Assembly (NCBI GenBank): GCA_031270335.1
Contig: JAISXV010000035.1
Span: 1-42,589, forward strand
DNA: 42,589 bases
Source: Prevotellaceae bacterium
Lineage (GTDB): Bacteria > Bacteroidota > Bacteroidia > Bacteroidales > UBA932
Direction: 5' to 3'
The translations under genes and the position numbers were made by a program. This document shows, piece after piece, positions 1,671 through 42,299 of the stretch. The notes below the pieces were generated by a model. The model ran no database searches. It saw nothing but the letters and a program-made list of their open reading frames with translations, and had not been told where the DNA came from. The stretch's first letter is position 1. Each line of letters begins with the position of its first letter.

Positions 1671-1681
1671 AATAGAATTAT

Positions 1682-1883
1682 GATTTTTGATTTACGATCT
1701 TTGATTTACGATTTTTGATTTACGATTTTTGATTTACGATTTTTGATTTACCTTCAGGCGCAAGCAGCAATCTAAAGTCCAAAATCAACAATCTAAAATA
1801 GATTTGATTTACCTTCGGGCGCAAGCAGCAATCTAAAGTCTAAAATCTAAAATCTAAAGTCTAAAATCATCAATCTAAAATAG
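1682..1883. repeat. two tandem copies of a heptamer-array element (array, 35-nt core, array)
   Basis: Bases 1682-1751 are ten 7-bp units (GATTTTT/GATTTAC). The core GATTTACCTTC[A/G]GGCGCAAGCAGCAATCTAAAGTC occurs at 1745-1779 and again at 1806-1840 with one mismatch. TCTAAAG/TCTAAAA-type heptamers fill 1771-1798 and 1832-1880. Confidence 0.9.
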
Positions 1884-3166: not shown

Positions 3167-3950
3167 TTTTTGTTCCTTTGTTTGTGTTGTTTAGGTCGTT
3201 GTGCGATTTGATAACGACCTCTTTTACACCTTCGTTTAATGCTTTAAAAGCATTGTCAATTTTCGGAATCATGCCGGCGGCGATTACTCCGCTGGCTTTG
3301 AGTTTTTCGCAATTGACCGAATTAATCAGAGGAATCACTGAACTGTCGTCGTTGACGTTGGCAAGCAATCCCTGTTTTTCGAAACAGTAAATCAGCCTGA
3401 CCGAAACGCCGGCAGCAGATAACGCCGTAGCAATTGACTGAGCGACAGTGTCGGCATTGCAATTGAGTAAAATGCCATGCCGGTCGGCAGTTATTGAGCA
3501 AAACACAGGGACAAGTCCTGCGTTGATAAATGTCAACAGTCGCTCGGCGTTGATGCCATCGACGGGAATGTCGCCGACGAAACCGAAATCGACGGGACAG
3601 GGCGACCGCTTCACCGCTTCGATTATCCCAGCGTCGATGCCCGACAACCCGATTGCATCGCATCCGAGCGAGCGAAGTTGAGCCGTGAGGCTTTTGTTTA
3701 TCAAACCTGCATACACCATAGTCACGATTTCTATTGTTTGCGAATCGGTGACACGCCTGCCGTCTATCATTTTTGTCGGGACGTCGAGTTTGGCGGAGAT
3801 TCGAGTAGCAAGTTTGCCTCCACCGTGTACCAAAACCTTGTCGCCGGGTATAACAGCAAACTCTTGCAGAAAATATTTCAAATCCTCCGGACAATCAATG
3901 ACATTGCCGCCTATCTTGACAATTGTAATTTCAATATCGTTATATTCCAT
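3153..3950 (-). CDS. argB: acetylglutamate kinase
   Basis: Amino-acid kinase fold motifs: IVKIGGNVI, VLVHGGG and NCNADTVA. The track start at 3977 is a TTG that overlaps a -7 box, so the ATG at 3950 (MEYNDIE...) is preferred. Confidence 0.85.
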   Translation of the reverse strand: MEYNDIEITIVKIGGNVIDCPEDLKYFLQEFAVIPGDKVLVHGGGKLATRISAKLDVPTKMIDGRRVTDSQTIEIVTMVYAGLINKSLTAQLRSLGCDAIGLSGIDAGIIEAVKRSPCPVDFGFVGDIPVDGINAERLLTFINAGLVPVFCSITADRHGILLNCNADTVAQSIATALSAAGVSVRLIYCFEKQGLLANVNDDSSVIPLINSVNCEKLKASGVIAAGMIPKIDNAFKALNEGVKEVVIKSHNDLNNTNKGTKITLR

Positions 3951-6063: not shown

Positions 6064-6695
6064 CCTGTAATAAACGGATTATGAAGCCTTTCCCAGCCTG
6101 TTTCCGTATCGGGACCGTGACCGCAATACACTTTTGTTTCGGCGGGGAGAGCAATCAGTGTTTCGAGACTTTCCATTATTTTGTCGTAATCGCCTCCGGG
6201 CAAGTCTGTTCGCCCGATGCTTCCGGCAAAGAGAGTGTCGCCGGCGATGAGAAAATGTCCGGTTTCGGAATAGAAACATACCGAGCCGGGAGAATGTCCG
6301 GGAGTTGTAATTACCTTTAATTCAGAGTTGCCAAACTTAATTGACTGTCCATTTTCGAGGAAATGCGAGGGCGGATAAGGCTGTTCCTCCGCAAATCCGA
6401 ACAGCGAAGCGCTCGCCCTGAAACGCTGGATATTTGCCAACTCGCCTTCCGACGCCCATAATTCTACTCCGTATTCGTTGATAACGAAATTGTTGCCAAA
6501 GATATGGTCGAAATGACAGTGCGTATTCAACAGTATTTTTGGAGTGAGTCCGCTGTCGGCGATAAACTGTTTTAATGCGTTTTTTTCCTGTGGTTTCTGA
6601 CAGCCCGGGTCAATTATCGCACATTCTTTTGTTTCGTCGTAAATGATATACGTATTTTCCTGCAATGGATTGAATATTAACTTTTTTATCTCCAT
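6060..6695 (-). CDS. MBL-fold metallo-hydrolase (glyoxalase II-like)
   Basis: 211 aa with the HxHxDH motif HCHFDH and a downstream TPGHSPGS histidine motif. Overlaps the next gene by 4 nt. Confidence 0.85.
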   Translation of the reverse strand: MEIKKLIFNPLQENTYIIYDETKECAIIDPGCQKPQEKNALKQFIADSGLTPKILLNTHCHFDHIFGNNFVINEYGVELWASEGELANIQRFRASASLFGFAEEQPYPPSHFLENGQSIKFGNSELKVITTPGHSPGSVCFYSETGHFLIAGDTLFAGSIGRTDLPGGDYDKIMESLETLIALPAETKVYCGHGPDTETGWERLHNPFITG

Positions 6696-6899: not shown

Positions 6900-7391
6900 A
6901 TGAAACGATTTAAAAAAGCGCTATTGTTTATCTTCCTTGTATTTATTGCGATACAGGGCAGTTCAGGAGACGATTATGATTACTACGCTGTTTACATGGA
7001 CAGAGCAAATCTCGAAAAATCGGTCTTTTATCTCGAAACGGGTAAAGATATGAAAAATCCCGGAAAAATCTATTACAAACATCCATACCTTTTTGTTAAT
7101 GAGAAATATAAAGGCGTGCATGTTTTCGACAACACCGACCCTGCCAATCCTGTTAAAAAAGGATTCATAATAGCGCCGGGTTGCTTGGATATGGCTGTGA
7201 AAGACAACATTATCTATCTCGACAATGCTGTAGATCTGGTCAGTTTCGATTTAAGCGCAATGAAGGAAACGAAACGGATAACTAAGGTGTTTCCCGAACT
7301 TGCGCCTCCAAACGGACGCGTACTGTGGTATCCCGACTACGAGTATGACCGTCCTGAAAATCTTATCATTGTTGAATGGGCTAAACGTTAA
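6900..7391 (+). CDS. secreted hypothetical protein with LVIVD-like repeats
   Basis: Signal peptide MKRFKKALLFIFLVFIAIQG. LVIVD-type segments: YLFVNEKYKGVHVFDNTDPANPV and DNIIYLDNAVDLVSFDLS. Confidence 0.6.
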   Translation: MKRFKKALLFIFLVFIAIQGSSGDDYDYYAVYMDRANLEKSVFYLETGKDMKNPGKIYYKHPYLFVNEKYKGVHVFDNTDPANPVKKGFIIAPGCLDMAVKDNIIYLDNAVDLVSFDLSAMKETKRITKVFPELAPPNGRVLWYPDYEYDRPENLIIVEWAKR

Positions 7392-9147: not shown

Positions 9148-10461
9148 TTACTTGATTATCGGAACGACTGCTGCTCCAAAAGGTACGCCTGTTTTCAGGT
9201 CGAACTTTTCTTCAACATTTGTATCAAATGCTACAACATCTTGTCCTTGATTTGTCAGGTAAAAATCTCCGTTAAGCGGATTTACCGACACGCCGTACAC
9301 CATGAAAAATTCGTGTACTATATCGCTGATATTTTCCACTGCTTTAGTTTGCAGATTGATTTTGTTGATATAGTTTAAAACATAGTCATAATCGACGACA
9401 TAAATGAAATCCTTGGCGAGCGCTATTTTCGACGCCCTGATGTCAAGCGTAGTGACTGTCTTTTGTTCGGGATCCAACACGTGAAGATTCGTAGGAGCCG
9501 TTACTGTCCAATTTTCGTCGTACACGCTGGCAGTTGTGAAATAGATTTCGCCTGATGGCGTAGCCTCAATCATCATGGGATTTTGCGGTACATCAATGGA
9601 TTCCGTTTCTTCGAACGAGTTAATGTCCACTACGGAAATAGTATTTCCAGCACCCCATCCGGAGTTGCAGACATACAAATTATCGTTATAAAAACATATA
9701 CCTTCCGCATTATTTCCGCTCAAATCTGCTGTTCCGTCAATCTCCAACGAAGCTGTGTCAATACGAACGACGGATTGCGAATATGTGGTTACATACGCTT
9801 TGTTATCGTGGAAAATGACACGGCGCGGACTGTCAACTATTATTCGTGTTATCGACTCGCCTGTTTCGGAATTGATGACGTCAACATATCCTGCATCTGT
9901 GACAGTACAGTATAATTTGCTGCCATAGATAGCCAAATCATTAGCGCCGTTTCCAAGCGGCTTGCCATTCTTTTGAGTGTAATAGTTTTTGGTTGTCTCT
10001 CCTGTTTTTACATTGTAATAAGCAATGTCTGATGTGCCGGTACCCCAAGCGCCTTCGCTTAAAATGAACAATCCCACTGTTTCGAGCGCTTTGCTTTGGG
10101 TTACCTCAATTTCGACATCGGGAAGACCGTCGGCTTTGACAGTAATAACCGCTGTACGCGGTGTAGCGGCTGTGTTTTCGGCAACGGTAACTTCGACAGT
10201 TGCGTTGGAGTTGCCTAAGATTTTGGACACTGTTATCCATTCGGCATCAGCGCTGGAATTGCCCGAGGTTTTGGTTACCCAGTCGGCATCTTTTTCGATT
10301 ATCCAATCAGTATTGGATGTGATTGTAAATGATTTTGTCTCGCCACTGTGCAGAAATGACAGCGACGTTGGATCAACCTTTAGTTCCGGTACAAAATCAT
10401 CATCTTTTTTACATGCAACTAATGTAAGTGCAAGTACAAACAAAATAAAAATTTTCTTCAT
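9148..10461 (-). CDS. surface lipoprotein: N-terminal BACON domain plus YncE-like beta-propeller (candidate corrinoid-binding protein)
   Basis: Lipobox LVACKKDD. BACON-like segment LSFLHSGETKSFTITSNTDWII...ATVEVTV...RTAVITV. Propeller part GLFILSEGAWGTGTSDIAYYN...GANDLAIYGSKLY. Preceded by a cobalamin riboswitch. Confidence 0.8.
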   Translation of the reverse strand: MKKIFILFVLALTLVACKKDDDFVPELKVDPTSLSFLHSGETKSFTITSNTDWIIEKDADWVTKTSGNSSADAEWITVSKILGNSNATVEVTVAENTAATPRTAVITVKADGLPDVEIEVTQSKALETVGLFILSEGAWGTGTSDIAYYNVKTGETTKNYYTQKNGKPLGNGANDLAIYGSKLYCTVTDAGYVDVINSETGESITRIIVDSPRRVIFHDNKAYVTTYSQSVVRIDTASLEIDGTADLSGNNAEGICFYNDNLYVCNSGWGAGNTISVVDINSFEETESIDVPQNPMMIEATPSGEIYFTTASVYDENWTVTAPTNLHVLDPEQKTVTTLDIRASKIALAKDFIYVVDYDYVLNYINKINLQTKAVENISDIVHEFFMVYGVSVNPLNGDFYLTNQGQDVVAFDTNVEEKFDLKTGVPFGAAVVPIIK

Positions 10462-10544
10462 GTCTAAATATTATTTAAATTATTAATAAAAAATACATCT
10501 ACAAAGCTTTATACCTCGAAAGCTTGAAAAAACGGTGTAATGGC

Positions 10545-10715
10545 AGGTCTTCTGACTTACCCCATCCGGAAACGCCCTTCCCATTATTTTCGCTAAATAA
10601 CAGTGGCAAAAAGTGTTTGCTTCCGGACTATATCAGGGTTCACAGCAGCGGGTCTGTTCGGGATTTCCACCCGATTCCCTTTTATCGTCTGTTTTTGCAC
10701 AAAAACAAATGAACC
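10545..10715 (-). promoter_or_regulatory. cobalamin (B12) riboswitch
   Basis: The minus strand reads AAGGGAATCGGGTGGAAATCCCGAACAGACCCGCTGCTGTGAACCC (10636-10680), then the B12 box GCCACTG (10601-10607) and GGGAAGGGCG (10573-10582). These are the conserved core segments of the cobalamin riboswitch class, in the correct order and spacing. Confidence 0.85.
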
Positions 10716-10727
10716 TATTTACGGGCG

Positions 10728-10735
10728 CAAAGGTA
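10728..10735 (-). promoter_or_regulatory. -7 promoter box TACCTTTG driving the riboswitch leader
   Basis: TAnnTTTG match immediately upstream of the riboswitch. Confidence 0.5.
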
Positions 10736-13276: not shown

Positions 13277-14038
13277 ATGGATAATAATAAGATATTTGGA
13301 CTCCGTCCTGTTTTGGAAGCTCTCAAGGCGGGCAAATCGTTCGAGAAGATTCTGATTCGCGAGGGCGGAGGTTCCGATTTGCTCTATCAGATAATTGATT
13401 CGGCTAAAAAAAAGAATATTACGCTTGACAGAGTTCCTGCCGAAAGGCTCGATCGACTGTCGAAAAACGCTAATCATCAGGGAATAGTGGCGTTTTTGTC
13501 GTCCGTAGAATATTCAGACTTGGAAGATGTTCTGGAAAATATCCGGCTGGCAGGAAAAACGCCGTTTCTGCTTTTGTTGGACAAAATCACCGATGTACGT
13601 AACTTCGGAGCAATAGCCCGTACAGCCGAATGTGCAGGAATAGACGCAATTGTCGTGCCGGCGAAAAACGCCGCCCCGCTGAATGTCGATGCAATGAAAA
13701 CTTCGGCAGGCGCATTGAATTACGTCCCTGTCTGCAAAACGCCAAACCTGAGAACGGCTATCTATCTGATTAAAAACTACGACATAAAAATAATCGCAGC
13801 AACCGAAAAATCCGGACAAAACTATTTCGACGCCGATTTGTCGGGAGCTGTCGCAATCATTCTTGGTTCGGAAGAATCCGGTATTTCTGCTAACAATCTG
13901 GAACTTACCGACGAAACAGTGAAAATCCCGCTTCAGGGTAACATTGATTCGTTGAACGTTTCCGCCGCCGCCGCTGTGATTGCATTCGAATGTGTAAGGC
14001 AAAGGAGCGCATTAGTGGCAAATACTCTTAGTTCTTAG
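13277..14038 (+). CDS. rlmB: 23S rRNA (guanosine-2'-O)-methyltransferase, SpoU/TrmH family (RlmB-like)
   Basis: 253 aa. N-terminal substrate-binding part (IFGLRPVLEAL) and SpoU methylase motifs (NFGAIARTAECAG, ILGSEESGIS, IPLQGNIDSLNVSAAAAV). Confidence 0.85.
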   Translation: MDNNKIFGLRPVLEALKAGKSFEKILIREGGGSDLLYQIIDSAKKKNITLDRVPAERLDRLSKNANHQGIVAFLSSVEYSDLEDVLENIRLAGKTPFLLLLDKITDVRNFGAIARTAECAGIDAIVVPAKNAAPLNVDAMKTSAGALNYVPVCKTPNLRTAIYLIKNYDIKIIAATEKSGQNYFDADLSGAVAIILGSEESGISANNLELTDETVKIPLQGNIDSLNVSAAAAVIAFECVRQRSALVANTLSS

Positions 14039-14040
14039 TT
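14024..14040. repeat. heptamer-block repeat R1 (ACTCTTAGTTCTTAGTT)
   Basis: Identical 17-mer at 14291-14307 and a one-mismatch copy at 16925-16941. Contains the rlmB stop codon. Confidence 0.9.
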
Positions 14041-14108
14041 TTCAAGCCCGCAATGACGGACTCTTTCTCACAGAATCGCAACAGTTCTGTTTCTACGAGT
14101 GGAAACCA

Positions 14109-14137
14109 AACTCTTAACTCTTAGTTCTTAACTCTTT
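14109..14137. repeat. heptamer-block repeat R2 (AACTCTT AACTCTT AGTTCTT AACTCTT)
   Basis: Four 7-bp units of the same family as R1, R3 and R4. Confidence 0.85.
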
Positions 14138-14286: not shown

Positions 14287-14310
14287 CTTAACTCTTAGTT
14301 CTTAGTTTCC
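14287..14310. repeat. heptamer-block repeat R3 (CTTAACTCTTAGTTCTTAGTTTCC)
   Basis: Same family as R1. Its reverse complement encodes the last Lon codons and the stop (ETKN*). Confidence 0.9.
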
Positions 14311-16751
14311 AAGGCGATACTCAGGACTTCTTTCATTGTTGTTACATATTTAAAAGTAAGACCTTCGAGATATTCCTGTTTTATTTCTGCGATATTCTTT
14401 TTGTTGTCGGCAGAAAGGATTATTGTTGAGACTCCTGCACGTTTGGCAGCGAGTATCTTTTCTTTAACGCCGCCGACCGAAAGAACTTTTCCGCGGAGAG
14501 TTATTTCGCCGGTCATTGCGATACCTTTTTGCACCTTTCGACCTGTGAAAATCGAAGCAATAGACGTCAGCATTGTGATTCCGGCAGAAGGTCCGTCTTT
14601 TGGGATAGCGCCTTCGGGGACGTGAATGTGAACGTTTTTCTTTTCGAACATCTCTTCGTTGATGTTCAGAGAGGAAGCATGAGCCTTAATGTACTCCAGC
14701 GCTATTTTTGCCGATTCTTTCATCACATCGCCCAGATTTCCCGTGATTTGCAATGCTCCTTTTCCGGGGCTTATGCTTGCTTCGACAAAGAGAATTTCGC
14801 CGCCTGCTTCTGTCCAGGCGAGACCGGTTGTTACTCCCACAAAATTGTTCGAGCCGATTACATCTCTCTGGATTTTCGACGTCCCGAGAATCTTTTTCGC
14901 TTCCGCCGCCGATATCTTTTTCTTGAATTTTTCGCCGAATGCCAGAGCTTTGGCTCTGTTACGGATGATTTTTGCGATTTGCTTGTCAAGATTTCTGACG
15001 CCCGACTCGTGCGTATATTCGTCTATGATTGTTTCGATTGCCGAATCGTCGAACGAGAGTTGTTTCGGTTTAACGCCGTGAGCCTCCAACGCTTTGGGAA
15101 TCAAGTGACGTTTGGCGATTTCCAATTTTTCCTGACTGATATATCCTGTCAGGTTTATCATCTCCATTCTGTCGCGCAGGGCGGGATGTATGGTATCCAC
15201 ACGGTTTGCCGTTGTGATGAACATGACGCGCGACAAATCGTAGTCCAAATCGAGATAATTATCACGGAACGTAGAATTTTGTTCGGGGTCAAGCACTTCG
15301 AGCAGCGCCGACGAAGGGTCGCCTTTAAAATCGTTGCCAACCTTGTCGATTTCGTCCAGAATAATAACGGGATTCGAAGTTTTGCAACGGTTGATTGTCT
15401 GCACTATTCTGCCCGGCATTGCGCCGATATAAGTTCTTCGATGTCCCCGTATTTCGGCTTCGTCGTGCAATCCGCCCAGAGATATTCTGCCGAATTTACG
15501 ACCTAAAGCCCGCGCTACCGATTTGCCCAGCGAAGTTTTTCCCACGCCCGGAGGTCCGTGCAGGCAGATAATCGGCGATTTCAAATCGCCTTTGAGTTTT
15601 ATCACCGAAAGATATTCCAATATCCTCTCTTTGACCTCTTCCAGACCGAAATGGTCTTCGTCAAGGACGTCCTTAACCAGGTTGAGGTCAAGATTATCCT
15701 GCGAACATTCGTCCCACGGCAGGTCGGTCAGGATATCCAGATAATTCAACTGTACGGAAAATTCGCCTCCGAGAGGATTCATTTTCTCGAACTTATTCAG
15801 TTCTTTATCAAACGTATCCTTTACATATTGGGGCCACTTTTTCGACGAAGCTTTTTCAACAAGACGTTCGACTTCGCTATCAGTAGCATCGTTATCATTA
15901 CCAAGTTCGTTTTGTATTGTTTTGATTTGCTGATGAAGAAAATATTCGCGCTGTTGCTGGTCCATTTCCGACCGGACTTTCTGCTGAATATCGTTTTTGA
16001 TTTCCATCAGTTGAATTTCATGTCCGAGGAGTTCGACGAGTTTCAAAGCACGTTCTTTCAGTTCGCCGATTTCGAGTAATACCTGTCTGTCGTTGTGATT
16101 TTCGAACTCAATGTTTGCCGAAATAAAATTTATCAAAAGCTTGGGATTCTCGATGTTTCGTATTGCAAATGATGCTTCGGGCGGCATGTGCATCGAAAAA
16201 TTTATCATCTTTGATATCGAATCTTTCACAGCGCCAATGATAGCCTCGAAATCCTTGTCGGACTTCGGCGGTTCGACGTCGGTCAACATCCTGATGTATG
16301 CTGTAAAATACGGATCCTGCTGTACATAGTCGTCAACGACAAAACGTTGTATGCCCTGCAATAAGACCGTTACAGCGCCGTCGGGCATCTCGAAAATCTT
16401 CAATATCCGGGCAAGCGTACCGACACGGTACAAATCGCCGGCTTCGGGTTCTTCGATATTGGGATCCTTTTGCCCGACCGCGCCAATCATTCTTGATCCC
16501 GAATACGCTTCCCGAATCAACTTTATCGACTTGTCTCTGCCAACCGTTATCGGCATCACTACCAGCGGAAAAAGCACCGCATTACGTAAAACAAGCATCG
16601 GCAAAGGCATCGGCAACTCTTTTTCGGTAAAATTTTCCGAAGAATCCTCATTCAGTGGTATAAAACCAATATTTTCGCCCATAGCGCCTGCTATAAATAT
16701 TTTTCCTAACTTATCAAAAGCCATATAATCCTCCAACTGCCAAAATGACAT
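14295..16751 (-). CDS. lon: ATP-dependent endopeptidase La (Lon protease)
   Basis: 818 aa. LON N-domain, AAA+ Walker [10 protein letters not shown], and the protease serine motif [11 protein letters not shown]. Confidence 0.95.
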
Positions 16752-16915: not shown

Positions 16916-16950
16916 CAACTCTTAACTTTTAGTTCTTAGTTCTTAACTTA
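16916..16950. repeat. heptamer-block repeat R4 (CAACTCTTAACTTTTAGTTCTTAGTTCTTAACTTA)
   Basis: Same family and orientation as R1-R3. Abuts the rluB stop codon at 16948-16950 and is preceded by CCCCAAC, which is related to the G-rich heptamers at 35751-35936. Confidence 0.9.
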
Positions 16951-18201
16951 CTCGTATGCTCCCATTTTCAACATTTCCACTTCTTTAGGAGTCAAAAGGC
17001 GGTAATCTCCGCGTCGTAAACCTTTTTTTGTAAGACCAGCAAAATAAACTCTGTCGAGTTTAACAACTTCATATCCAAGTTTTTCGAACATACGCCGGAT
17101 AACTCTGTTCCTGCCCGAATGTATCTCGACCCCCAGTTCGGCTTTGTTGGTGTCCGAAACGTGGATACTGTCCACAACAGCCGGTCCGTCTTCGAGTTCG
17201 ACGCCTTCGATCAAGGCTTTTAAATCGGCTTTGGCAACATTTTTGTCAAGCCGTACCTGATACACTTTCAACTTGTTATGCGAAGGATGAGTTAACTGTT
17301 TCGCCAAATCGCCGTCGTTGGTGAAAAGCAACACTCCGGTGGAGTTCCTGTCCAACCGTCCGACAGGGTAAACCCGTTCCTTACACGCTCCCTCAATCAG
17401 TTCCATGACTGTCTTTTTCGCATGAGGGTCGTCGGTCGTCGTGATGTAGTTTTTCGGCTTGTTCAAAAGGATATACGCCTTGTTTTCGCCTTTCAGACGC
17501 TCCTTATTGAAACGGACGTCGTCATCTCTCCTGACTTTCGTGCCTAACTCGGTAACTATCGTACCATTAACCGAAACAAGCCCCGCAGTGATATACTCGT
17601 CGGCTTCTCTGCGCGAACATACCCCCGAATTTGCTATAAACTTGTTCAGTCGCACCAATTCGTCTTTCTTTTTCTCCGGTTTTCGTACCGATTTTCTTTC
17701 CGGCTTGTCGGAATACGACCTGCTGCTGCGACGAGGTTTTTGTTCCCGTCGGTCGGAATAATTTTCTCTTTCCGATGATGTTGAATACTTGCGGGGACGT
17801 TTCTCCTGCGAATCTCTTTCAGGCTTGTCGGAATACGACCTGCTGCTGCGACGAGGTTTTTGTTCCCGCCGATCGGAATAATTTTCTCTTTCCGATGATG
17901 CTGAATACTTGCGAGGACGTTTCTCCTGCGAATCTTTTTCAGGCTTGTCGGAATACGACCTGCTGCTGCGACGAGGTTTTTGCTCCCGTCTTTCGGAATA
18001 ATTTTCTCTTTCCGAAGATGTTGAATACTTGCGAACTCGTCTGTCCGTCGAATATTTTTCCGGTTTATCGGAATATGACCTTCGACGAGGCGCTTGTTCG
18101 TTTTTATCACTGCTTTTTTCGGACCTGTTTTTTATTTCCCACACCGAACCGGCAGTTTTTTTCTCTGTTTTATCCCTCAAAGGGGCTTTCTCTTTTCCCA
18201 T
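16948..18201 (-). CDS. rluB: rRNA pseudouridine synthase (RluB/RsuA family) with a repetitive basic N-terminal extension
   Basis: S4 domain (LVRLNKFIANSGVCSRREADEYITAGLVSVNG) and catalytic motif GRLDRNSTGVLLFTNDG. About 180 N-terminal residues are Arg/Ser/Lys/Glu-rich repeats. Confidence 0.85.
   Translation of the reverse strand: MGKEKAPLRDKTEKKTAGSVWEIKNRSEKSSDKNEQAPRRRSYSDKPEKYSTDRRVRKYSTSSERENYSERREQKPRRSSRSYSDKPEKDSQEKRPRKYSASSERENYSDRREQKPRRSSRSYSDKPERDSQEKRPRKYSTSSERENYSDRREQKPRRSSRSYSDKPERKSVRKPEKKKDELVRLNKFIANSGVCSRREADEYITAGLVSVNGTIVTELGTKVRRDDDVRFNKERLKGENKAYILLNKPKNYITTTDDPHAKKTVMELIEGACKERVYPVGRLDRNSTGVLLFTNDGDLAKQLTHPSHNKLKVYQVRLDKNVAKADLKALIEGVELEDGPAVVDSIHVSDTNKAELGVEIHSGRNRVIRRMFEKLGYEVVKLDRVYFAGLTKKGLRRGDYRLLTPKEVEMLKMGAYE
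17701..18090. repeat. 120-bp tandem repeat, about 3.2 copies, inside the 5' part of rluB
   Basis: Units start at 17701, 17821 and 17941, with a degenerate partial unit from 18061, and align almost base for base. They encode the 40-aa repeat YSDRREQKPRRSSRSYSDKPE[KR]DSQEKRPRKYS[AT]SSEREN. Confidence 0.95.
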
Positions 18202-26255: not shown

Positions 26256-28124
26256 TTATCTACCAAAATAAACCAACAAAACCGAAATATCTGCCGGAGA
26301 GACGCCGGGAATACGTGCTGCCTGACCTATTGTTGCCGGTTTGATTTTCGAAAGTTTTTGGCGTGATTCTATTGATAAAGATTTTAGCCGTGAATAATCG
26401 AAATCTTTCGGAATAACGATTTCATTTAAACGTTTTATTTTATCGGCAGTTTGTTGTTCACGCTCAATATATCCTTCATACTTAATAAAAATTTCTACCG
26501 CCTCCAATATTTCTTCAGTCCGAAAATCTATCTCCCCTACCCTGCTCTGCAATTCGGGAACAAGCGAAATCAAATCCGATAATCCGACTTCCGGACGTAA
26601 CAGAATATCCGACAGTTTACGTGACTGCGTTATCAACGAAGAATTTACAGACGACAAAAAAGGATTAACTGCATCCGCCGCAACATTGTTACTTTTAATA
26701 AAATCACACAATTCGGCAAATTTTTGCTTCTTTCTCAAAAAATTATTGTAACGATCATTTTTAATCAACCCCAAATTGTATCCCAAAGTTGTCAAACGGA
26801 AATCGGCATTATCCTGACGCAACAAAATCCGGTACTCGGCACGCGAAGTAAACATCCGGTACGGTTCATCGACGCCTTTCATCACCAAATCGTCAATCAA
26901 CACGCCGATATACGCCTGTTCTCTGCCAAGCGTAACGGACGATTCGCCATTGATTTTCCGATGAGCGTTTATTCCAGCTATTAAACCCTGAGCAGCAGCC
27001 TCTTCATAACCTGTTGTTCCGTTGATTTGTCCCGCAAAAAAGAGGTTTTGAATCTTTTTTGTTTCCAGAGAATGATACAGTTGCACAGGCGGAAAATAAT
27101 CGTATTCAATAGCATATCCGGGACGAAAAAACTTTGCTTCTTCCAAACCTTTCACCTTGTGTAACGCCTTCAACTGAACATCCATAGGAAGCGACGACGA
27201 AAATCCATTAATATAATACTCGTTAGTATCAACGCCTTCGGGTTCGATAAACAGATGATGACTGTCCTTATCGGCGAAAGTCCTTATCTTGTCTTCAATA
27301 CTCGGACAATATCTCGGACCAACACCTTTTATAATTCCCGTAAAGAGTGGAGATTGCGAAAATCCTTCCTTCAAAATATCGTGAACTTCAACAGAAGTGT
27401 GGGTAATGTAACAACTTCGCTGCGGTAAAATAAATCCTTTGCCTGAAATATATGAAAAATGACCCTCGTCATCGCCTTTTTGCTTGTGCATAACCGAAAA
27501 ATCTATTGTCCTGCCATCGACACGCGCAGGAGTGCCGGTTTTCATTCTTCCCGCCTCAAATCCCAAAGCGACAAGTTGCTCGGTGATGCCATACGAAGCC
27601 AACTCCCCTACCCTGCCGCCACAAGTCTGTGACATTCCGACATGAATCAATCCATCAAGAAACGTACCAGCTGTCAAAATCACAGAACGAGCGCCAAACG
27701 AAGCCCCAAGAACAGTTTTAACGCCAACAACGCTACCATTTTCAATAATCAAGCCCAAAACCATGTCCTGCCAAAAAAACAGATTCGGCAAACTTTCGAG
27801 AATATTTCTCCATTCGACGGAAAAACGAAACCTGTCGCATTGAGAGCGAGGACTCCACATAGCCGGACCTTTCGAACGGTTTAACATCCGGAACTGTATC
27901 GACGAACGATCAGTTACTACAGCCGTATATCCTCCTAAAGCGTCTATCTCACGTACAATCTGCCCTTTAGCGATTCCGCCAATAGCCGGATTACACGACA
28001 TTGCCGCAAATTTAGTCATATCCGCAGTAATTAAAAGCGTCTGCGAACCCATGTTTGCGGCGGCAGCAGCGGCTTCGCATCCCGCATGTCCACCGCCAAT
28101 AACTATAATATCATAATTGGTCAT
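26256..28124 (-). CDS. mnmG: tRNA uridine-5-carboxymethylaminomethyl(34) synthesis enzyme MnmG (GidA)
   Basis: 622 aa with the FAD-binding N-terminus YDIIVIGGGHAGCEAA, plus GRMKTGTPARVD and the conserved C-terminal GVSPADISVLLVY. Confidence 0.95.
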   Translation of the reverse strand: MTNYDIIVIGGGHAGCEAAAAAANMGSQTLLITADMTKFAAMSCNPAIGGIAKGQIVREIDALGGYTAVVTDRSSIQFRMLNRSKGPAMWSPRSQCDRFRFSVEWRNILESLPNLFFWQDMVLGLIIENGSVVGVKTVLGASFGARSVILTAGTFLDGLIHVGMSQTCGGRVGELASYGITEQLVALGFEAGRMKTGTPARVDGRTIDFSVMHKQKGDDEGHFSYISGKGFILPQRSCYITHTSVEVHDILKEGFSQSPLFTGIIKGVGPRYCPSIEDKIRTFADKDSHHLFIEPEGVDTNEYYINGFSSSLPMDVQLKALHKVKGLEEAKFFRPGYAIEYDYFPPVQLYHSLETKKIQNLFFAGQINGTTGYEEAAAQGLIAGINAHRKINGESSVTLGREQAYIGVLIDDLVMKGVDEPYRMFTSRAEYRILLRQDNADFRLTTLGYNLGLIKNDRYNNFLRKKQKFAELCDFIKSNNVAADAVNPFLSSVNSSLITQSRKLSDILLRPEVGLSDLISLVPELQSRVGEIDFRTEEILEAVEIFIKYEGYIEREQQTADKIKRLNEIVIPKDFDYSRLKSLSIESRQKLSKIKPATIGQAARIPGVSPADISVLLVYFGR

Positions 28125-34320: not shown

Positions 34321-37320
34321 TTAATATTTTATTGATACTCCAAGAGAAACAAACTGACCCTGATTGAATCGTTTTGTTGTCTGTTCACGTTTATATATTG
34401 CATTATCTTTTTCGAATTTCGGAAACTGTTTGAACACTATGTCTTCGGCGAGAATATCGCGGATGGAACACCTTAATTCGCAATGTTTGCCAATTGTCTT
34501 TATAATTGACAGATCAAGCATGTTGCGCGGCATTTCGTAAGAATCGGGAACCATGTTGTTGATAATTTGGTCGGGAACGTTAGATTTGCCGAGTCCGACA
34601 ATTCGTTTACCGATGCGGTTGTACAGCGCCGAAATATTCAGCCCCGCTTTTTCGGACGCATAATATATCCCCGCATTAATCACATAAGGCGACTGTCCCT
34701 GCATTGCGCGATCGGGTTCCGACACCACTTCGCCCGGCTCGAAATGTACCCGGCTCGAAATCAACGCAACGTTCATCGTCGCCGACAATGCCGGCAATCC
34801 TATAAAATCCAGTTTCTTACGTACATCAAGTTCTATTCCGCGACTGACTGCCTTACCTGCATTTTCGTAACTGTAACGCCACGAGCCGCCCATATCAATA
34901 AACGTCCATTCAATCGGATTCCGGAAATATTTGTAGAAAATACCCAGACTGACCGTTTCGCCCAGCGCCGGATAAAATTCGTATCGCAAATCTATGTTAT
35001 CAATCTTTGCCGTTTTCAGATTTTCGTTACCGCCGATTTCGCTGAACAAATCGAAATCGTAATACACCGAAGGCGACAACTCACGCAGTTCGGGACGATT
35101 AACCGAACGACCGTAAGCCGCTCTTAACTGATGCCGTTCCGAAAACCTGTACACAAGATTCACCGATGGAAGCCAGTCCAATTCATTGATAATCTTAGTA
35201 GTATCCAACGTTATAGCGGGGTTCATCGAACGGTCGTTTGTGAGTTTCGTGCGCCGGTTTTCGAAACGTACTCCGGCATAAATCGCCAGATTGTTTACAG
35301 GAATTTCGAAGACGGCATATCCGGCGGCGTGCAGCACATTTGCCGAATAGTTGTTGGTTTTCTTAGTAATCTCATCAACATACACCTTATCGGCGCCGAG
35401 ATACCGGTTATCAAACATCTCGGCGAACGGCAGCGACAAATAAGTTTGCCGTTCCTCGTACGACAGTTTGTTATAACGGTAAATAAACTCACGCATAGCA
35501 TAATCGCGGTCTTGATATTCCCCATAAAAACCTGTTTTTAAAGCAGAAAGAAATATATTGTCAAACGTATGTCTATAATTCAACGCAGCGGAAAATATAT
35601 TATCATAAAGATTATGGAAATATCTTGAAATATTATCGTTATGTGTTGTGACGAAAGGAATATCCTCTTCGTTTCCGATGCCGGCGTAATTGACGACAAT
35701 CCGACGGTCGGGTTCGTTCTTCGAAGCGAACGAATATCCGATATCCCAGGATAGGGTAGGGGAGTTGGGGTTTGGGGTATGGGCGTTGGGGTTTAGGGTT
35801 TGGGGATTAGGGGAGTTGGGGTTTAGGGTATGGGGATTAGGGTTTGGGGCATGGCTATCCCTATTGCCTAACCCCCATACCCTATCGCCTAACCCCCATA
35901 CCCTATTGCCTAAACCCCATACCCCATCTCCTAACTCATGCGTTCCCGAAAATTGTCCGCTGTAAATCAGTCGTGACGAATACTGTATTTCAGTCTGTTC
36001 ATAGTAATACATACTGCTGACATCCTTGATTCCTGTGCGTTTCGTTAAACGATTACGTCCGAGAATGTTGAGCAGATTTTTGAACTCAATGCGGTTCGAA
36101 GGATTAATGACAAACGACCAGTTGTGCAGGACGCCCAGCCGTGCATCGTTCGAAAACTGATTATCAACATAATCGTAGAGATAAACCGGAGTGTCTTCTG
36201 TATAATTATAGATACCGTAACGGGCGTTTTTCATTTTGTGTACACTCTTAAAAGTGTTGCTGTAATTGAGCGAAGTAAGATTGCCGACAGTCCGGTTGCT
36301 TTTCGTTTCGATTCGACGGGCGAGGGTCAGGAAAAACCGCTGGTCGGGAACGGGTATAATATTTCTAACTTTCCAGTTGGTGTTGAATCCTTCTTTGGTT
36401 AGACGGGTGATTTCATCGGGATTATTGACTGCGCCCAGATGTTCGGGAAAATCTTTTGACAAAGTACGCATATTGTTGTCGAATCCAAGGAAATCTGTCG
36501 CTCCGCCTTCCCCGATATGGAAGACGTCGAATTGCGTCGCAACATTGAATCCGGTAGTGTAACCGGCTTGGATACTGTTTTCGTCGGGTACGCTCTTGGA
36601 AGTGATTTTGACGAATCCGCCGGAGAAATCGCCGGGGATATCGGGCGATGGCGACTTGTAAACCATCAGATTGTCAATCTGACTGCCCGGCACGAGATCG
36701 AACGGAAAAGCTCGACTGTCGGTTTCGGTGCTTGGCGCCGTCATACCGTTAATCCACGCATTGTTGTAGCGTTGCGACAGCCCACGGACAATAATCAGCC
36801 GGTCGTCGATAATCGTTACGCCCGGCGCCCGACGAATAACTTCGGACGCAACTCTATCCGGACTTCGCGCTATCTGCGCCGCTGAAATACCGCTCGCAAC
36901 TTGCGGAAGCGTCTTGACAATCTGCATTATCGCATTTTCGGTATTACTCCTCTGACGGGCGCTGACAACAACCGCATCCATCACGATGTCTTCGCTTTCG
37001 ATGTAAATATCCATCACGGTATCGGACTGCAGGATTTCAAAATCCATTTCAAACGTCCTGTACGAAAGAGCAGAGACTTCCAATATATAACTTCCTGCGC
37101 TAAGATTCCGGATATTGTAATATCCTTCGACGTTGGTAGTTGCGCCCTTATCAGTGTTCTTAATCAACACTATAGCTCCCTCGACAGGGTTTGATGTTTC
37201 CGCATCGCGGACAATTCCCGAAATTTCTCTTGCTTCGGCGAAAAATCCCGAAACCAAAATCTGAAAAACCACAATCAATAACCTTGTCTTCAATTTGTTT
37301 TGCATAATCACTTTCATCAT
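34321..37320 (-). CDS. TonB-dependent receptor (carboxypeptidase-regulatory-like N-domain, plug, barrel), non-SusC type
   Basis: 999 aa. CarbopepD_reg-like segment ISGIVRDAETSNPVEGAIVLI...GYYNIRNLSAGSYILEVS. Plug region DRVASEVIRRAPGVTIIDDRLIIVRGLSQRYNN. C-terminal aromatic residue (IKY). No susD homologue downstream. Confidence 0.9.
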   Translation of the reverse strand: MMKVIMQNKLKTRLLIVVFQILVSGFFAEAREISGIVRDAETSNPVEGAIVLIKNTDKGATTNVEGYYNIRNLSAGSYILEVSALSYRTFEMDFEILQSDTVMDIYIESEDIVMDAVVVSARQRSNTENAIMQIVKTLPQVASGISAAQIARSPDRVASEVIRRAPGVTIIDDRLIIVRGLSQRYNNAWINGMTAPSTETDSRAFPFDLVPGSQIDNLMVYKSPSPDIPGDFSGGFVKITSKSVPDENSIQAGYTTGFNVATQFDVFHIGEGGATDFLGFDNNMRTLSKDFPEHLGAVNNPDEITRLTKEGFNTNWKVRNIIPVPDQRFFLTLARRIETKSNRTVGNLTSLNYSNTFKSVHKMKNARYGIYNYTEDTPVYLYDYVDNQFSNDARLGVLHNWSFVINPSNRIEFKNLLNILGRNRLTKRTGIKDVSSMYYYEQTEIQYSSRLIYSGQFSGTHELGDGVWGLGNRVWGLGDRVWGLGNRDSHAPNPNPHTLNPNSPNPQTLNPNAHTPNPNSPTLSWDIGYSFASKNEPDRRIVVNYAGIGNEEDIPFVTTHNDNISRYFHNLYDNIFSAALNYRHTFDNIFLSALKTGFYGEYQDRDYAMREFIYRYNKLSYEERQTYLSLPFAEMFDNRYLGADKVYVDEITKKTNNYSANVLHAAGYAVFEIPVNNLAIYAGVRFENRRTKLTNDRSMNPAITLDTTKIINELDWLPSVNLVYRFSERHQLRAAYGRSVNRPELRELSPSVYYDFDLFSEIGGNENLKTAKIDNIDLRYEFYPALGETVSLGIFYKYFRNPIEWTFIDMGGSWRYSYENAGKAVSRGIELDVRKKLDFIGLPALSATMNVALISSRVHFEPGEVVSEPDRAMQGQSPYVINAGIYYASEKAGLNISALYNRIGKRIVGLGKSNVPDQIINNMVPDSYEMPRNMLDLSIIKTIGKHCELRCSIRDILAEDIVFKQFPKFEKDNAIYKREQTTKRFNQGQFVSLGVSIKY
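35751..35936. repeat. G-rich/C-rich heptamer-array inverted repeat inserted in-frame in the TonB-dependent receptor gene
   Basis: Bases 35751-35853 are GGGTTTG/GGGTATG/GGGTTTA/GGGATTA-type units. Bases 35854-35936 are CCTAACC/CCCATAC/CCTATCG-type units. The arms are partly complementary, and both strands stay open. Confidence 0.9.
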
Positions 37321-41158: not shown

Positions 41159-42217
41159 ATGAAAGAGAAAATACGAATAGGCATAACGCATGGCGATTTT
41201 AACGGAATAAACTATGAAGTAATAATGAAAACCTTCTCCGACACGGCGATAAACGAGTTTTTTATTCCCATTGTTTACGGCTCGTCGAAGGCTGCCGCAT
41301 ATTATAGAAAAGCTCTGGATATGGAGAATTTCGGTTTTAATGTTATCAACGATGCGGATGAGGCTAATGTTAAGAGAACAAATATTGTAAATGTTGCCGA
41401 CAATGTTAAGGTCGAGATAGGATTTCCTTCGCAACTTGCAGGGATATCGTCGATTAAAGCGCTGGATATGGCTGTGGGCGATTTGCAGTCGGGCAAGATA
41501 GACGCAGTAGTAACCTGTCCCGTAAATAAAGCCACTGTCCGTGCCGCATCGTCGAATTTTTCGGGTCACACCGAATATTTTGCTGACAAGTTTAGCGTTA
41601 AAGATTATGCGATGCTGATGGTTAACGAATTGATGCGAGTAGGTTTTGTTACCGGTCATGTTACTTTGGAAGAAGTTTTGAAAATTCTGAATAAGGATTT
41701 GATAATTAATAAACTGTCGCTTATCAACGAATCGCTTAAAAACGATTTTATGATTCGTGCGCCCCGGATTGCCGTTTTGTCGTTGAATCCTTATGGCGGC
41801 AACAGTGGTTTGATAAGCAGGGAAGAGGTCGAAATCATCTGTCCTGCAATCGAAGAGGCGAAACGAAACGGGATATATGCTTTCGGCGCATATTCGGCTG
41901 ACGATTTTTTTGCTGCGGGCGATTTCAGGAATTTCGACGCCGTACTTGCAATGTATTACGACCAGGGAATGATTCCTTTTAAATCAATAGGTTTGTTGGG
42001 TGGAGTAGCCTATACTGCCGGATTGCCGATTGTCAGGACTGCGCCCGTGCATGGAACGGATTACGAAATTGCCGGTAAAGGAATCGCTACGCCCGCATCG
42101 CTAAGAGACGCTTTATTCCTCGCAATGGAAATATACAGAAACAGAAAAACACAAGGCGAAATCAGTGCAAACCCTCTGAAAATTAGAACAAATCATCAGA
42201 GAAAAACTCTGGAGTAG
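41159..42217 (+). CDS. pdxA: 4-hydroxythreonine-4-phosphate dehydrogenase
   Basis: 352 aa with PdxA family motifs (GITHGDFNGINYEV, FSGHTEYFA, NPYGG, DQGMIPFK, RTAPVHGT). Confidence 0.9.
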   Translation: MKEKIRIGITHGDFNGINYEVIMKTFSDTAINEFFIPIVYGSSKAAAYYRKALDMENFGFNVINDADEANVKRTNIVNVADNVKVEIGFPSQLAGISSIKALDMAVGDLQSGKIDAVVTCPVNKATVRAASSNFSGHTEYFADKFSVKDYAMLMVNELMRVGFVTGHVTLEEVLKILNKDLIINKLSLINESLKNDFMIRAPRIAVLSLNPYGGNSGLISREEVEIICPAIEEAKRNGIYAFGAYSADDFFAAGDFRNFDAVLAMYYDQGMIPFKSIGLLGGVAYTAGLPIVRTAPVHGTDYEIAGKGIATPASLRDALFLAMEIYRNRKTQGEISANPLKIRTNHQRKTLE

Positions 42218-42299
42218 GGTAGGGGAGTAAAGTATATTATTGAAACGGGAAGTAATGATAGAGTGAATGCTCATTTTATTGGAAGTATCGTAGAAAAAA

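Follow-up and report, generated by a model that had tools for sequence, protein, structure and literature searches.

The receptor gene carries an in-frame inverted pair of heptamer arrays

The window analyzed here is a 42,589-nucleotide (42.6-kb) contig of a Prevotellaceae bacterium (JAISXV010000035.1), and the element under study is a 186-base block at positions 35751-35936, in which a G-rich array of ~7-nucleotide (nt) units is followed on the + strand by its C-rich inverse. The block lies within the gene of a TonB-dependent receptor of 999 amino acids (aa). With a probability of roughly 60%, it is an intragenic, in-frame inverted pair of short-tandem-repeat arrays, an instance of the heptanucleotide-repeat phenomenon, which grew in place and is tolerated by the receptor as a disordered periplasmic appendage. 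The host gene and the parts of the block are as follows.

34321..37320, - strand: host gene, an intact 999-aa TonB-dependent receptor with a CarboxypepD_reg-like domain, a Plug domain and a 22-strand-type barrel.
35859..35937, - strand: 5' arm (coding sense), with G-rich coding strand and C-rich + strand; 3.7 copies of a 21-nt superunit of three heptamer-like units.
35850..35858, not assigned to a strand: hairpin apex (loop), CATGGCTAT on the + strand, unpaired in the minimum-free-energy structures of both DNA and RNA.
35751..35853, - strand: 3' arm (coding sense), with G-rich + (template) strand and C-rich mRNA; ~12 units, each 6-8 nt long, and a 51-nt duplication within the arm.
35767..35925, - strand: net extra sequence compared to orthologues (residues 466-518), from protein alignments of 60 and 120 sequences and a DNA alignment of the window with the orthologous loci L001, L002 and L125.

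The coordinates, the sequence and the two-arm heptamer structure agreed with a preliminary description of this DNA when analyzed with Tandem Repeats Finder, inverted-repeat and fold statistics. On the + strand, the G-rich array consists of 6-8-nt units (GGGGTTT, GGGGTAT, GGGCGTT, GGGTTTA, GGGATTA and GGGGAGTT) and extends up to ~35853; GGGGTTTA also belongs to the unit vocabulary of the block. Tandem Repeats Finder reported a period of 7 (11.9 copies at 35765-35849), a period of 30 (2.6 copies at 35768-35842) and a period of 21 (3.7 copies with 87% matches at 35859-35935). At period 7 merely 70-72% of the positions matched, which indicates that the units are heterogeneous. Direct repeats with 91% identity and a spacing of 21 nt (family D2) were identified in the 5' arm, and a direct repeat with 85% identity (family D1, 35757-35803 vs 35808-35854) in the 3' arm. 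The autocorrelation of the 5' arm peaked at 21 nt (0.81) and 42 nt (0.80), compared to 0.59 at 7 nt, and that of the 3' arm at 51 nt (0.77).

The repeat finder gave inverted arms of 42-62 nt with a complementarity of 72-79%. In the arm pair singled out in the preliminary description, 35826-35842 and 35866-35882, 15 of the 17 positions pair. As single-stranded DNA the block folded with -52.1 kcal/mol, compared to -35.0 ± 3.5 kcal/mol for dinucleotide shuffles (z = -4.9; 0/200 shuffles as good), and as mRNA-sense RNA with -106 kcal/mol (z = -7.0). A four-unit G-rich heptamer pattern, for which no match is expected by chance, had its sole match in the window at this block. The block is confirmed as real and far beyond chance. 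No Rfam family was identified at its position.

Canonical quadruplex motifs were defined as tracts of at least three G separated by loops of 1-7 nt; as a sequence motif, this gives a potential for folding. Three such motifs are present at 35754-35835 of the + strand (the template for the receptor), and no further one was found across the whole window. The G-quadruplex potential proposed earlier coincides with the only three canonical motifs of the window.

The reading frame of the receptor is kept throughout the block. The 5' arm is translated as ELGD GVWGLGN RVWGLGD RVWGLGN RD and the 3' arm as APNPNPHTLNPNSPNPQTLNPNAHTPNPNSPTLS, so that the GVWGLGN/RVWGLGD repeats followed by a PNP/HT-rich tract read as quoted in the preliminary description. 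Across the block one frame is open on each strand and the other four contain 3-8 stops, with 6-8 stops in the two alternative frames of the coding strand. The opposite-strand open reading frame (ORF) at 35690-35965 indeed exists; as a real gene it was ruled out, since a palindrome would give just such a mirror image. An intrinsic terminator was also ruled out, as in the mRNA the hairpin lacks a U-run downstream.

The host gene itself is intact. The receptor matched the Pfam families PF13715, PF07715 and PF00593, and an AlphaFold model built from 109 sequences reached a predicted template modeling score (pTM) of 0.74. The best Foldseek matches of this model were solved TonB-dependent transporters with E-values around 1e-25; a sequence search of solved structures aligned the N-terminal domains alone and did not cover the barrel. 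The protein ends in an aromatic residue (...SIKY), as expected of the C-terminal barrel of a TonB-dependent receptor. The ratio of nonsynonymous to synonymous substitution rates (dN/dS) was 0.16-0.18 against both L001 and L002, at a dS of ~0.53. It is therefore concluded that the gene is under purifying selection and is not a pseudogene.

The insert is absent from most orthologues and varies in length

The receptor was aligned with 59 and then with 119 orthologues of 53-85% identity, taken as the best 120 of about 3,000 matches and labeled by their sources as Prevotellaceae, Dysgonamonadaceae, Tannerella and similar metagenome-assembled genomes (MAGs). The insert of 53-54 residues (466-518) was missing from 117/119 orthologues; the exceptions were P0047, which has a short homologous version, and P0075, which has an independent array. 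Orthologues without the insert contain a 7-residue turn of the type HDLSPSGTLTW instead. The consensus of this ancestral turn, D-L-S-x-x-x-x (for example DLSPSGT in P0006), is replaced by the codons bordering the insert. Since the insert is missing from 117 of the orthologues, it is not an ancestral domain. The earlier view of a palindromic insert rather than an evolved domain is thereby supported: the segment is lineage-specific in the alignment, and its predicted local distance difference test (pLDDT) score is below 50. A metagenome scan using the receptor flanks as a single protein gave no close relative. A profile-based scan yielded 80 orthologous loci, all with ≤60% identity, and in 43/43 of those whose site could be located by motif no insert of any kind was present there.

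P0047 is encoded at locus L001 (GCA_031297505.1), in a gene with 85% nt identity to the window and a dS of 0.53. At the same site it carries the short version ELGNRGNSHTSIPNSQTLS. Its left border, GAGTTAGG, and its right border, CCCCAACTCCC...CCCTGTCCTGG, align with the borders in the window, with far fewer units in between. L002, which is equally distant from the window (87% and 85% nt identity in two aligned segments), keeps the plain ancestral turn. The site thus measures 189 nt in the window, 57 nt in L001 and 27 nt in L002, and the length variation anticipated in the preliminary description is seen between the window and L001. The short allele of L001 folds no better than shuffles (z = +0.5). 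As L001 has a homologous short version with matching borders, the element must have been present in the common ancestor of the window and L001 and has greatly changed in length since. The internal copies in the window are 85-91% identical and are therefore younger than the split of the lineages (dS 0.53).

The same turn acquired arrays independently in a second lineage

P0075 (locus L125; ENA ERZ27257293 k141_1397658) has 57% aa identity to the query and contains a 37-residue insert at exactly the same turn; all of its nearest relatives (~76% identity) are free of inserts there. The DNA of this insert is a near-perfect hairpin of inverted arrays of 9-nt units, (GGGGAAANN) x4.9 followed by (TTCCCCGAC) x6.4, with a fold z-score of -9. 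A second in-frame array, which is direct, (TTCCCCTAT) x4.7, lies ~210 nt downstream of the first at 1842-1883 of L125 and replaces the ancestral QLGKNIKP by NSPISPTSPISPISP. The same turn has acquired arrays independently in two lineages, with unrelated units of 7 and 9 nt.

In both lineages the units at the borders resemble ancestral codons, and these short matches are suggestive of an origin of the arrays from codons of the turn. At the 3' border, CTC TCC CCG of L002 (TCCCC) matches AAC TCC CC of the window, and GAT TTT TCG ACA of L206 matches GATTTCCCC and CCGACT in L125. For the second site in L125, AAA CCG ACA of L207 matches TCC CCG ACT, the ancestral CCG ACA being similar to the array unit CCGACT.

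An assembly artefact, in which repeat-rich reads (for example from telomere-like eukaryotic DNA) were misjoined into the gene or the number of units was miscounted, was considered and is very improbable. The window appears to be a metagenome-type contig, short-read assemblers perform poorly on such repeats, and arrays resembling TTTAGGG and TTTGGGG were seen on contigs of low coding density (L003 and L004). However, the flanks of the block continue the gene precisely and in frame, the independent assembly of L001 contains the homologous short version at the same site, and the same architecture is found in a third assembly, that of L125, although an error in the exact count of units is still conceivable. 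An origin from eukaryotic telomere repeats was ruled out by the mixed units together with the homologous short allele in a relative.

The insert is predicted to hang from a periplasmic turn

In the AlphaFold model pLDDT is below 50 at residues 467-516, and the confident long strands 437-462 and 522-547 flank this region; the insert is thus predicted to be disordered. After the site, DSSP assigned long connections at residues 548-559, 616-657, 742-770, 860-878 and 911-931, and short connections at 586-592, 676-677, 726-729, 783-788, 838-841, 890-893 and 944-946. Because the last strand must end in the periplasm, the long connections are extracellular and the short ones periplasmic. The insert site and the second site of L125 both share the parity of the short connections, and counting from the plug domain gave the same result. 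The second L125 array lies in the next connection of the same parity, which would be the neighboring periplasmic turn. The strands of the model were counted as 24, not 22; removal of two would alter the parity only if one of them lay before the site and the other after it. Judged by strand parity, the insert is very probably located in a short periplasmic turn, and not in an extracellular loop as the preliminary description had expected. In this disordered, periplasmic location an antigenic role is unlikely.

Probable growth in place under reading-frame constraint

A seed for the block may have been a short G-run/C-run that arose in the codons of the short periplasmic barrel turn. Replication slippage or unequal recombination would then have lengthened each arm in situ. 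Steps of one 7-nt unit would shift translation into stop-rich frames, so that only steps in multiples of three, such as the 21-nt superunits and the 51-nt duplication, would have survived, and this survival could have produced the higher-order periods that are seen. The product would be a disordered tether of ~54 residues, Gly/Trp-rich and then Pro/Asn-rich, which hangs from the periplasmic turn and is tolerated by the constrained receptor. The stable mRNA hairpin and the quadruplex motifs on the template strand might reduce or modulate expression.

The dominant periods of 21, 42 and 51 nt are all multiples of three, which fits growth in situ under selection for the reading frame. A slip of one heptamer enters frames with 6-8 stops, and therefore only frame-preserving steps persist; the 9-nt unit of L125 is frame-neutral by construction. 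In contrast, the left arm (1678-1751) of an intergenic heptamer element in the window peaks at 14, 28 and 42 nt in the autocorrelation. Heptamer arrays are normally intergenic, and here one lies inside a constrained gene, has grown to 186 nt and is translated, provided that its growth was frame-preserving.

Several points weigh against growth in place. The other arm of the intergenic element (1830-1881) also peaks at 21 nt, and the argument from multiples of three rests on two arms, for which the chance of this outcome is ~1 in 9. Slippage does not account for inverse-complement arms, so that a template-switch or fold-back step must be assumed. The resemblances between border or seed units and ancestral codons are short and could be due to chance. 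The search for other copies covered 42.6 kb of the source genome, and copies elsewhere are possible; related Bacteroidales do carry dispersed heptamer-armed hairpins, with four copies in L173. Finally, two events struck one turn and none the long extracellular loops that are expected to be most tolerant, a surprising pattern if mutations were random and then filtered by tolerance.

A further possibility is a directed or strongly biased process that, in some Bacteroidales, plants hairpin-forming inverted arrays in the codons of short periplasmic turns of this receptor family. It would have acted at least twice independently (with 7-nt and 9-nt units) and spread once to the neighboring turn, either by an undescribed template-switch mechanism of mutation or through a heptamer-armed mobile element with a target preference. 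Such a process is considered unlikely. If true, it would be a route, distinct from that of the Rickettsia palindromic elements (RPEs), by which selfish or structural DNA repeats create protein segments.

The cases in the window and L125 form a natural experiment on the tolerance of a barrel for large disordered insertions, in which the tolerated site is, unexpectedly, a predicted periplasmic turn. Both cases also bear on the origin of inverted repeat arrays, which are abundant in Xanthomonas and cyanobacteria. Of most interest is why one periplasmic turn gained inverted arrays twice, and how inverse arms arise. In practice, such inserts mark length polymorphisms at the strain level and can mislead both gene callers, through mirror ORFs, and assemblers.

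A mobile palindromic element as alternative

Alternatively, a small non-autonomous mobile palindromic element with heptamer-array arms could have landed in frame and later changed in length. Such an element might resemble a miniature inverted-repeat transposable element (MITE), a repetitive extragenic palindrome (REP) or an RPE. This explanation is doubtful, although several observations fit it. A second hairpin-type heptamer element is present in the window, in the intergenic region at 1678-1881. Four dispersed (CAGTTGA)n-core-(ACTGTCA)n elements occur in L173, and in L196 one element lies directly 3' of the orthologous receptor gene. The fact that the same turn was struck in two lineages could reflect a target preference, and palindromic insertions in frame are documented for RPEs (PMC10969869).

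The search for copies spoke against it. No second copy of the block was found within the window, where matches were limited to 12-16 nt, the level of chance. When 1.84 billion representative proteins were scanned in full by HMMER with the 63-residue insert, 59 matches were obtained, none of them in a recognizable protein; all 59 were short ORFs over (GGGGTTT)n-type arrays, and hence no real protein with an in-frame copy was identified. A word-indexed search of 5.8 billion proteins with the insert peptide returned five spurious ORFs, the index being weak for low-complexity words. With the insert peptide of L125 as query, the index gave no match and missed even P0075 itself, so that it seems blind to such words. 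Two of the contigs with spurious ORFs were inspected and had sparse, unannotated gene calls.

The borders and the structure of the block also argue against mobility. In the DNA alignment of the window, L001, L002 and L125 there is no direct repeat at the borders and hence no target-site duplication. The codons of the ancestral turn are replaced by the insert and not cleanly interrupted, unlike in a MITE, which is recognized by terminal inverted repeats, a duplication and empty sites. The apex of the hairpin lacks the GC-rich core that is seen in dispersed Bacteroidales hairpins, the units in the two lineages are unrelated (7 and 9 nt), and the L001 allele shares the borders yet has no fold (z = +0.5). 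The comparison with RPEs made in the preliminary description thus holds for the in-frame palindromic outcome. It does not hold for a mobile mechanism: there is no second copy in the window, no target-site duplication, no conserved core and no protein carrier among the proteins searched, and the periods are multiples of three.

The left end of the element (AGGGTAGGGGAGTTGG) had exact matches at 27599-27614 (- strand, 16 nt), inside a coding region, and at 42215-42228 (+ strand, 14 nt), where ORF 41159-42217 stops. Both may be due to chance or may be isolated seeds of two units.

A selected function is improbable

The insert could also be a selected feature, namely a contingency locus of variable phase or length (which would switch or tune the receptor, perhaps in defense against phages that use it), an mRNA hairpin or quadruplex with a regulatory role, or a tether with a binding role in the periplasm. 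TonB-dependent receptors are common phage receptors, and a 7-nt unit is not a multiple of three, so that a slip of one unit would switch the gene off. The very stable mRNA hairpin (-106 kcal/mol), the presence of the sole quadruplex motifs of the window on the template strand of this gene, and the gain of arrays at the same turn twice would all suit a function. However, the heterogeneous units (70-72% matches at period 7) disfavor slippage by single units, and the recent duplications of 21 and 51 nt are all in frame. The disordered periplasmic location speaks against an antigenic role, and the peptide is not conserved among the window, L001 and L125. For analogous repeats, no regulatory or phase-variation role was seen by Rehm et al. 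(2015; PMC4692102). A selected function is therefore improbable, and the insert is most likely a tolerated passenger and not an adaptation.

Relation to known repeats

Among known kinds of repeat, the heptanucleotide simple-sequence repeat comes closest to the receptor block, which is an unusual intragenic variant of it. G-rich heptamer repeats of 2-26 units were described in Xanthomonas (GGGAATC) and Nostoc (GGGGAYT) (Rehm et al., 2015; PMC4692102). Of these repeats 89-93% are intergenic, coding regions being depleted of them, and each Xanthomonas genome contains 70-75 convergent inverted pairs; quadruplex formation was seen in vitro, the length varies between close species, and no function was identified (PMC4692102). 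The receptor block resembles them in its head-to-tail, heterogeneous ~7-nt units with a G3-4 tract and canonical quadruplex motifs, in a copy number that differs between related genomes (here the window and L001), and in a G-rich array that is paired with a nearby array on the opposite strand and has stem-loop potential. Unlike them, it is wholly intragenic, in frame and ~186 nt long, has another unit vocabulary and is found in a Bacteroidales host.

As summarized in PMC4679880, Mrazek et al. (2007) found heptanucleotides to be the most abundant long simple-sequence repeats and proposed polymerase slippage; according to the same summary, units that are multiples of three are favored in coding regions. 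The repeats of Xanthomonas and Nostoc belong to this class of long simple-sequence repeats. TAACTGA heptamer arrays were reported in Beggiatoaceae, cyanobacteria and five Bacteroidetes (MacGregor, 2015; PMC4679880). The preliminary description knew of no equivalent in Bacteroidota, and in view of those five Bacteroidetes this does not apply to heptamer arrays as such. For the arrangement found here, namely two such arrays as an inverted pair in frame within a receptor gene, a limited literature search gave no earlier report.

The short tandemly repeated repetitive (STRR) heptamers of cyanobacteria and the TAACTGA arrays share with the receptor block a scattered position near gene ends, a sporadic spread that includes Bacteroidetes and an occasional overlap with ORFs. 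Most of them are short, direct arrays between genes, and each family has one dominant heptamer, whereas the receptor block is inverted and coding, with mixed units and superperiods of 21 and 51 nt. In heterocystous cyanobacteria, STRR arrays lengthen a helix of the RNase P RNA.

RPEs occur as dispersed families whose copies encode conserved peptides (PMC10969869). Like them, the receptor block is a palindromic stretch of 100-200 bp in frame in a functional gene, where it inserts extra residues at a site that the protein structure permits. In contrast to the dispersed, similar copies and the conserved peptide of RPEs, it has no second copy in the window and no conserved peptide in unrelated proteins, and it is internally tandem-repeated, which RPEs are not. 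The likeness is one of outcome only, not of family or mechanism. Hairpins of the REP, bacterial interspersed mosaic element (BIME) or MITE type, such as those of L173, L196 and window 1678-1881, have the same order of arm, loop and inverse arm, with arms built from heptamers. Dispersed hairpins of the L173 type possess a GC-rich core and are intergenic, whereas the receptor insert has no core, no further copies in the window and no target-site duplication.

Heptamer arrays elsewhere in the window and in other genomes

The window holds three heptamer-array loci, each with different units. Besides the receptor block, there is an intergenic hairpin-type heptamer element at 1678-1881, flanked by the ORFs 1212-1670 and 1890-2570, which run in the same direction. 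The element is composed of (TTACGATTTTTGAT) x5.3, a core (ACCTTCAGGCGCAAGCAGC) and AATCTAA/AGTCTAA arrays, and a 61-nt internal duplication repeats the core; its DNA fold z-score is only -2.0. Three direct AACTCTT/AGTTCTT heptamer arrays (14025-14041, 14109-14136 and 14288-14310) lie in one intergenic region; the first and the last of them each overlap a stop codon, that of ORF 13277-14038 (+) and that of the convergent ORF 14295-16751 (-), respectively.

Heptamer arrays are frequent in this group, 7 nt being the commonest short tandem period in 1.1 Mb of orthologous Bacteroidales loci; this general background speaks for growth in place. Four dispersed hairpins of the composition (CAGTTGA)n, core, (ACTGTCA)n were identified in L173 (1799-1925, 6997-7100, 8973-9088 and 15873-15981); the GC-rich core TAGGCTTCGCGTCCGGTATACAAATCGGCTGGAAGCCGA is conserved in three copies, and in the fourth a part of it is inverted. 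In L196 and L184, arrays directly follow the stop codon of the orthologous receptor gene; array coordinates are 2725-2853 in L196 and 3549-3581, 6217-6256, 7052-7084 and 12746-12779 in L184. The dispersed heptamer-stem hairpins of L173, L196 and L184 look like an undescribed REP-like family.

Among the matches listed from species-representative genomes, G-rich heptamer arrays occurred mostly in filamentous cyanobacteria, and also in Planctomycetes and several Bacteroidota. At least 129 arrays were among these matches, of which 11/129 had an inverted partner within 400 nt and 5/129 lay inside long open frames. Two of these five are in clearly real cyanobacterial genes and are single in-frame arrays: one encodes GHGAWGMGHG in a beta-ketoacyl synthase (KAS)-like gene of a Nostoc sp. 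P12588 MAG (L068, 5787-5813), and the other encodes PMPNAPCPMPHAPSP in a LeuA/CimA-like gene (L124, 4431-4457). Long mixed G-rich arrays (GGGATTA, GGGGTTT, GGGGATA, GGCAATA) were observed in Subsaximicrobium wynnwilliamsii (L070, 4100-4400), a Capnocytophaga MAG (L071, 590-690) and a Flavihumibacter MAG (L072, 7050-7140). All of them are apparently intergenic, and one example forms an inverted (GGTAATA)n-loop-(TATACCC)n hairpin.

Further features of the window

The receptor gene is followed by a gene for a Big_2 domain protein, and the same neighbor is present in L002; the N-terminus of this protein looks like a putative lipoprotein signal. A 120-nt tandem repeat (17695-18081; 3.2 copies, 91% matches) in ORF 16948-18201 (-) forms an in-frame protein repeat of 40 residues. 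A cobalamin riboswitch (Rfam RF00174, 84.9 bits) at 10525-10733 (-), upstream of ORF 9148-10461 (-), is the sole Rfam match in the window.

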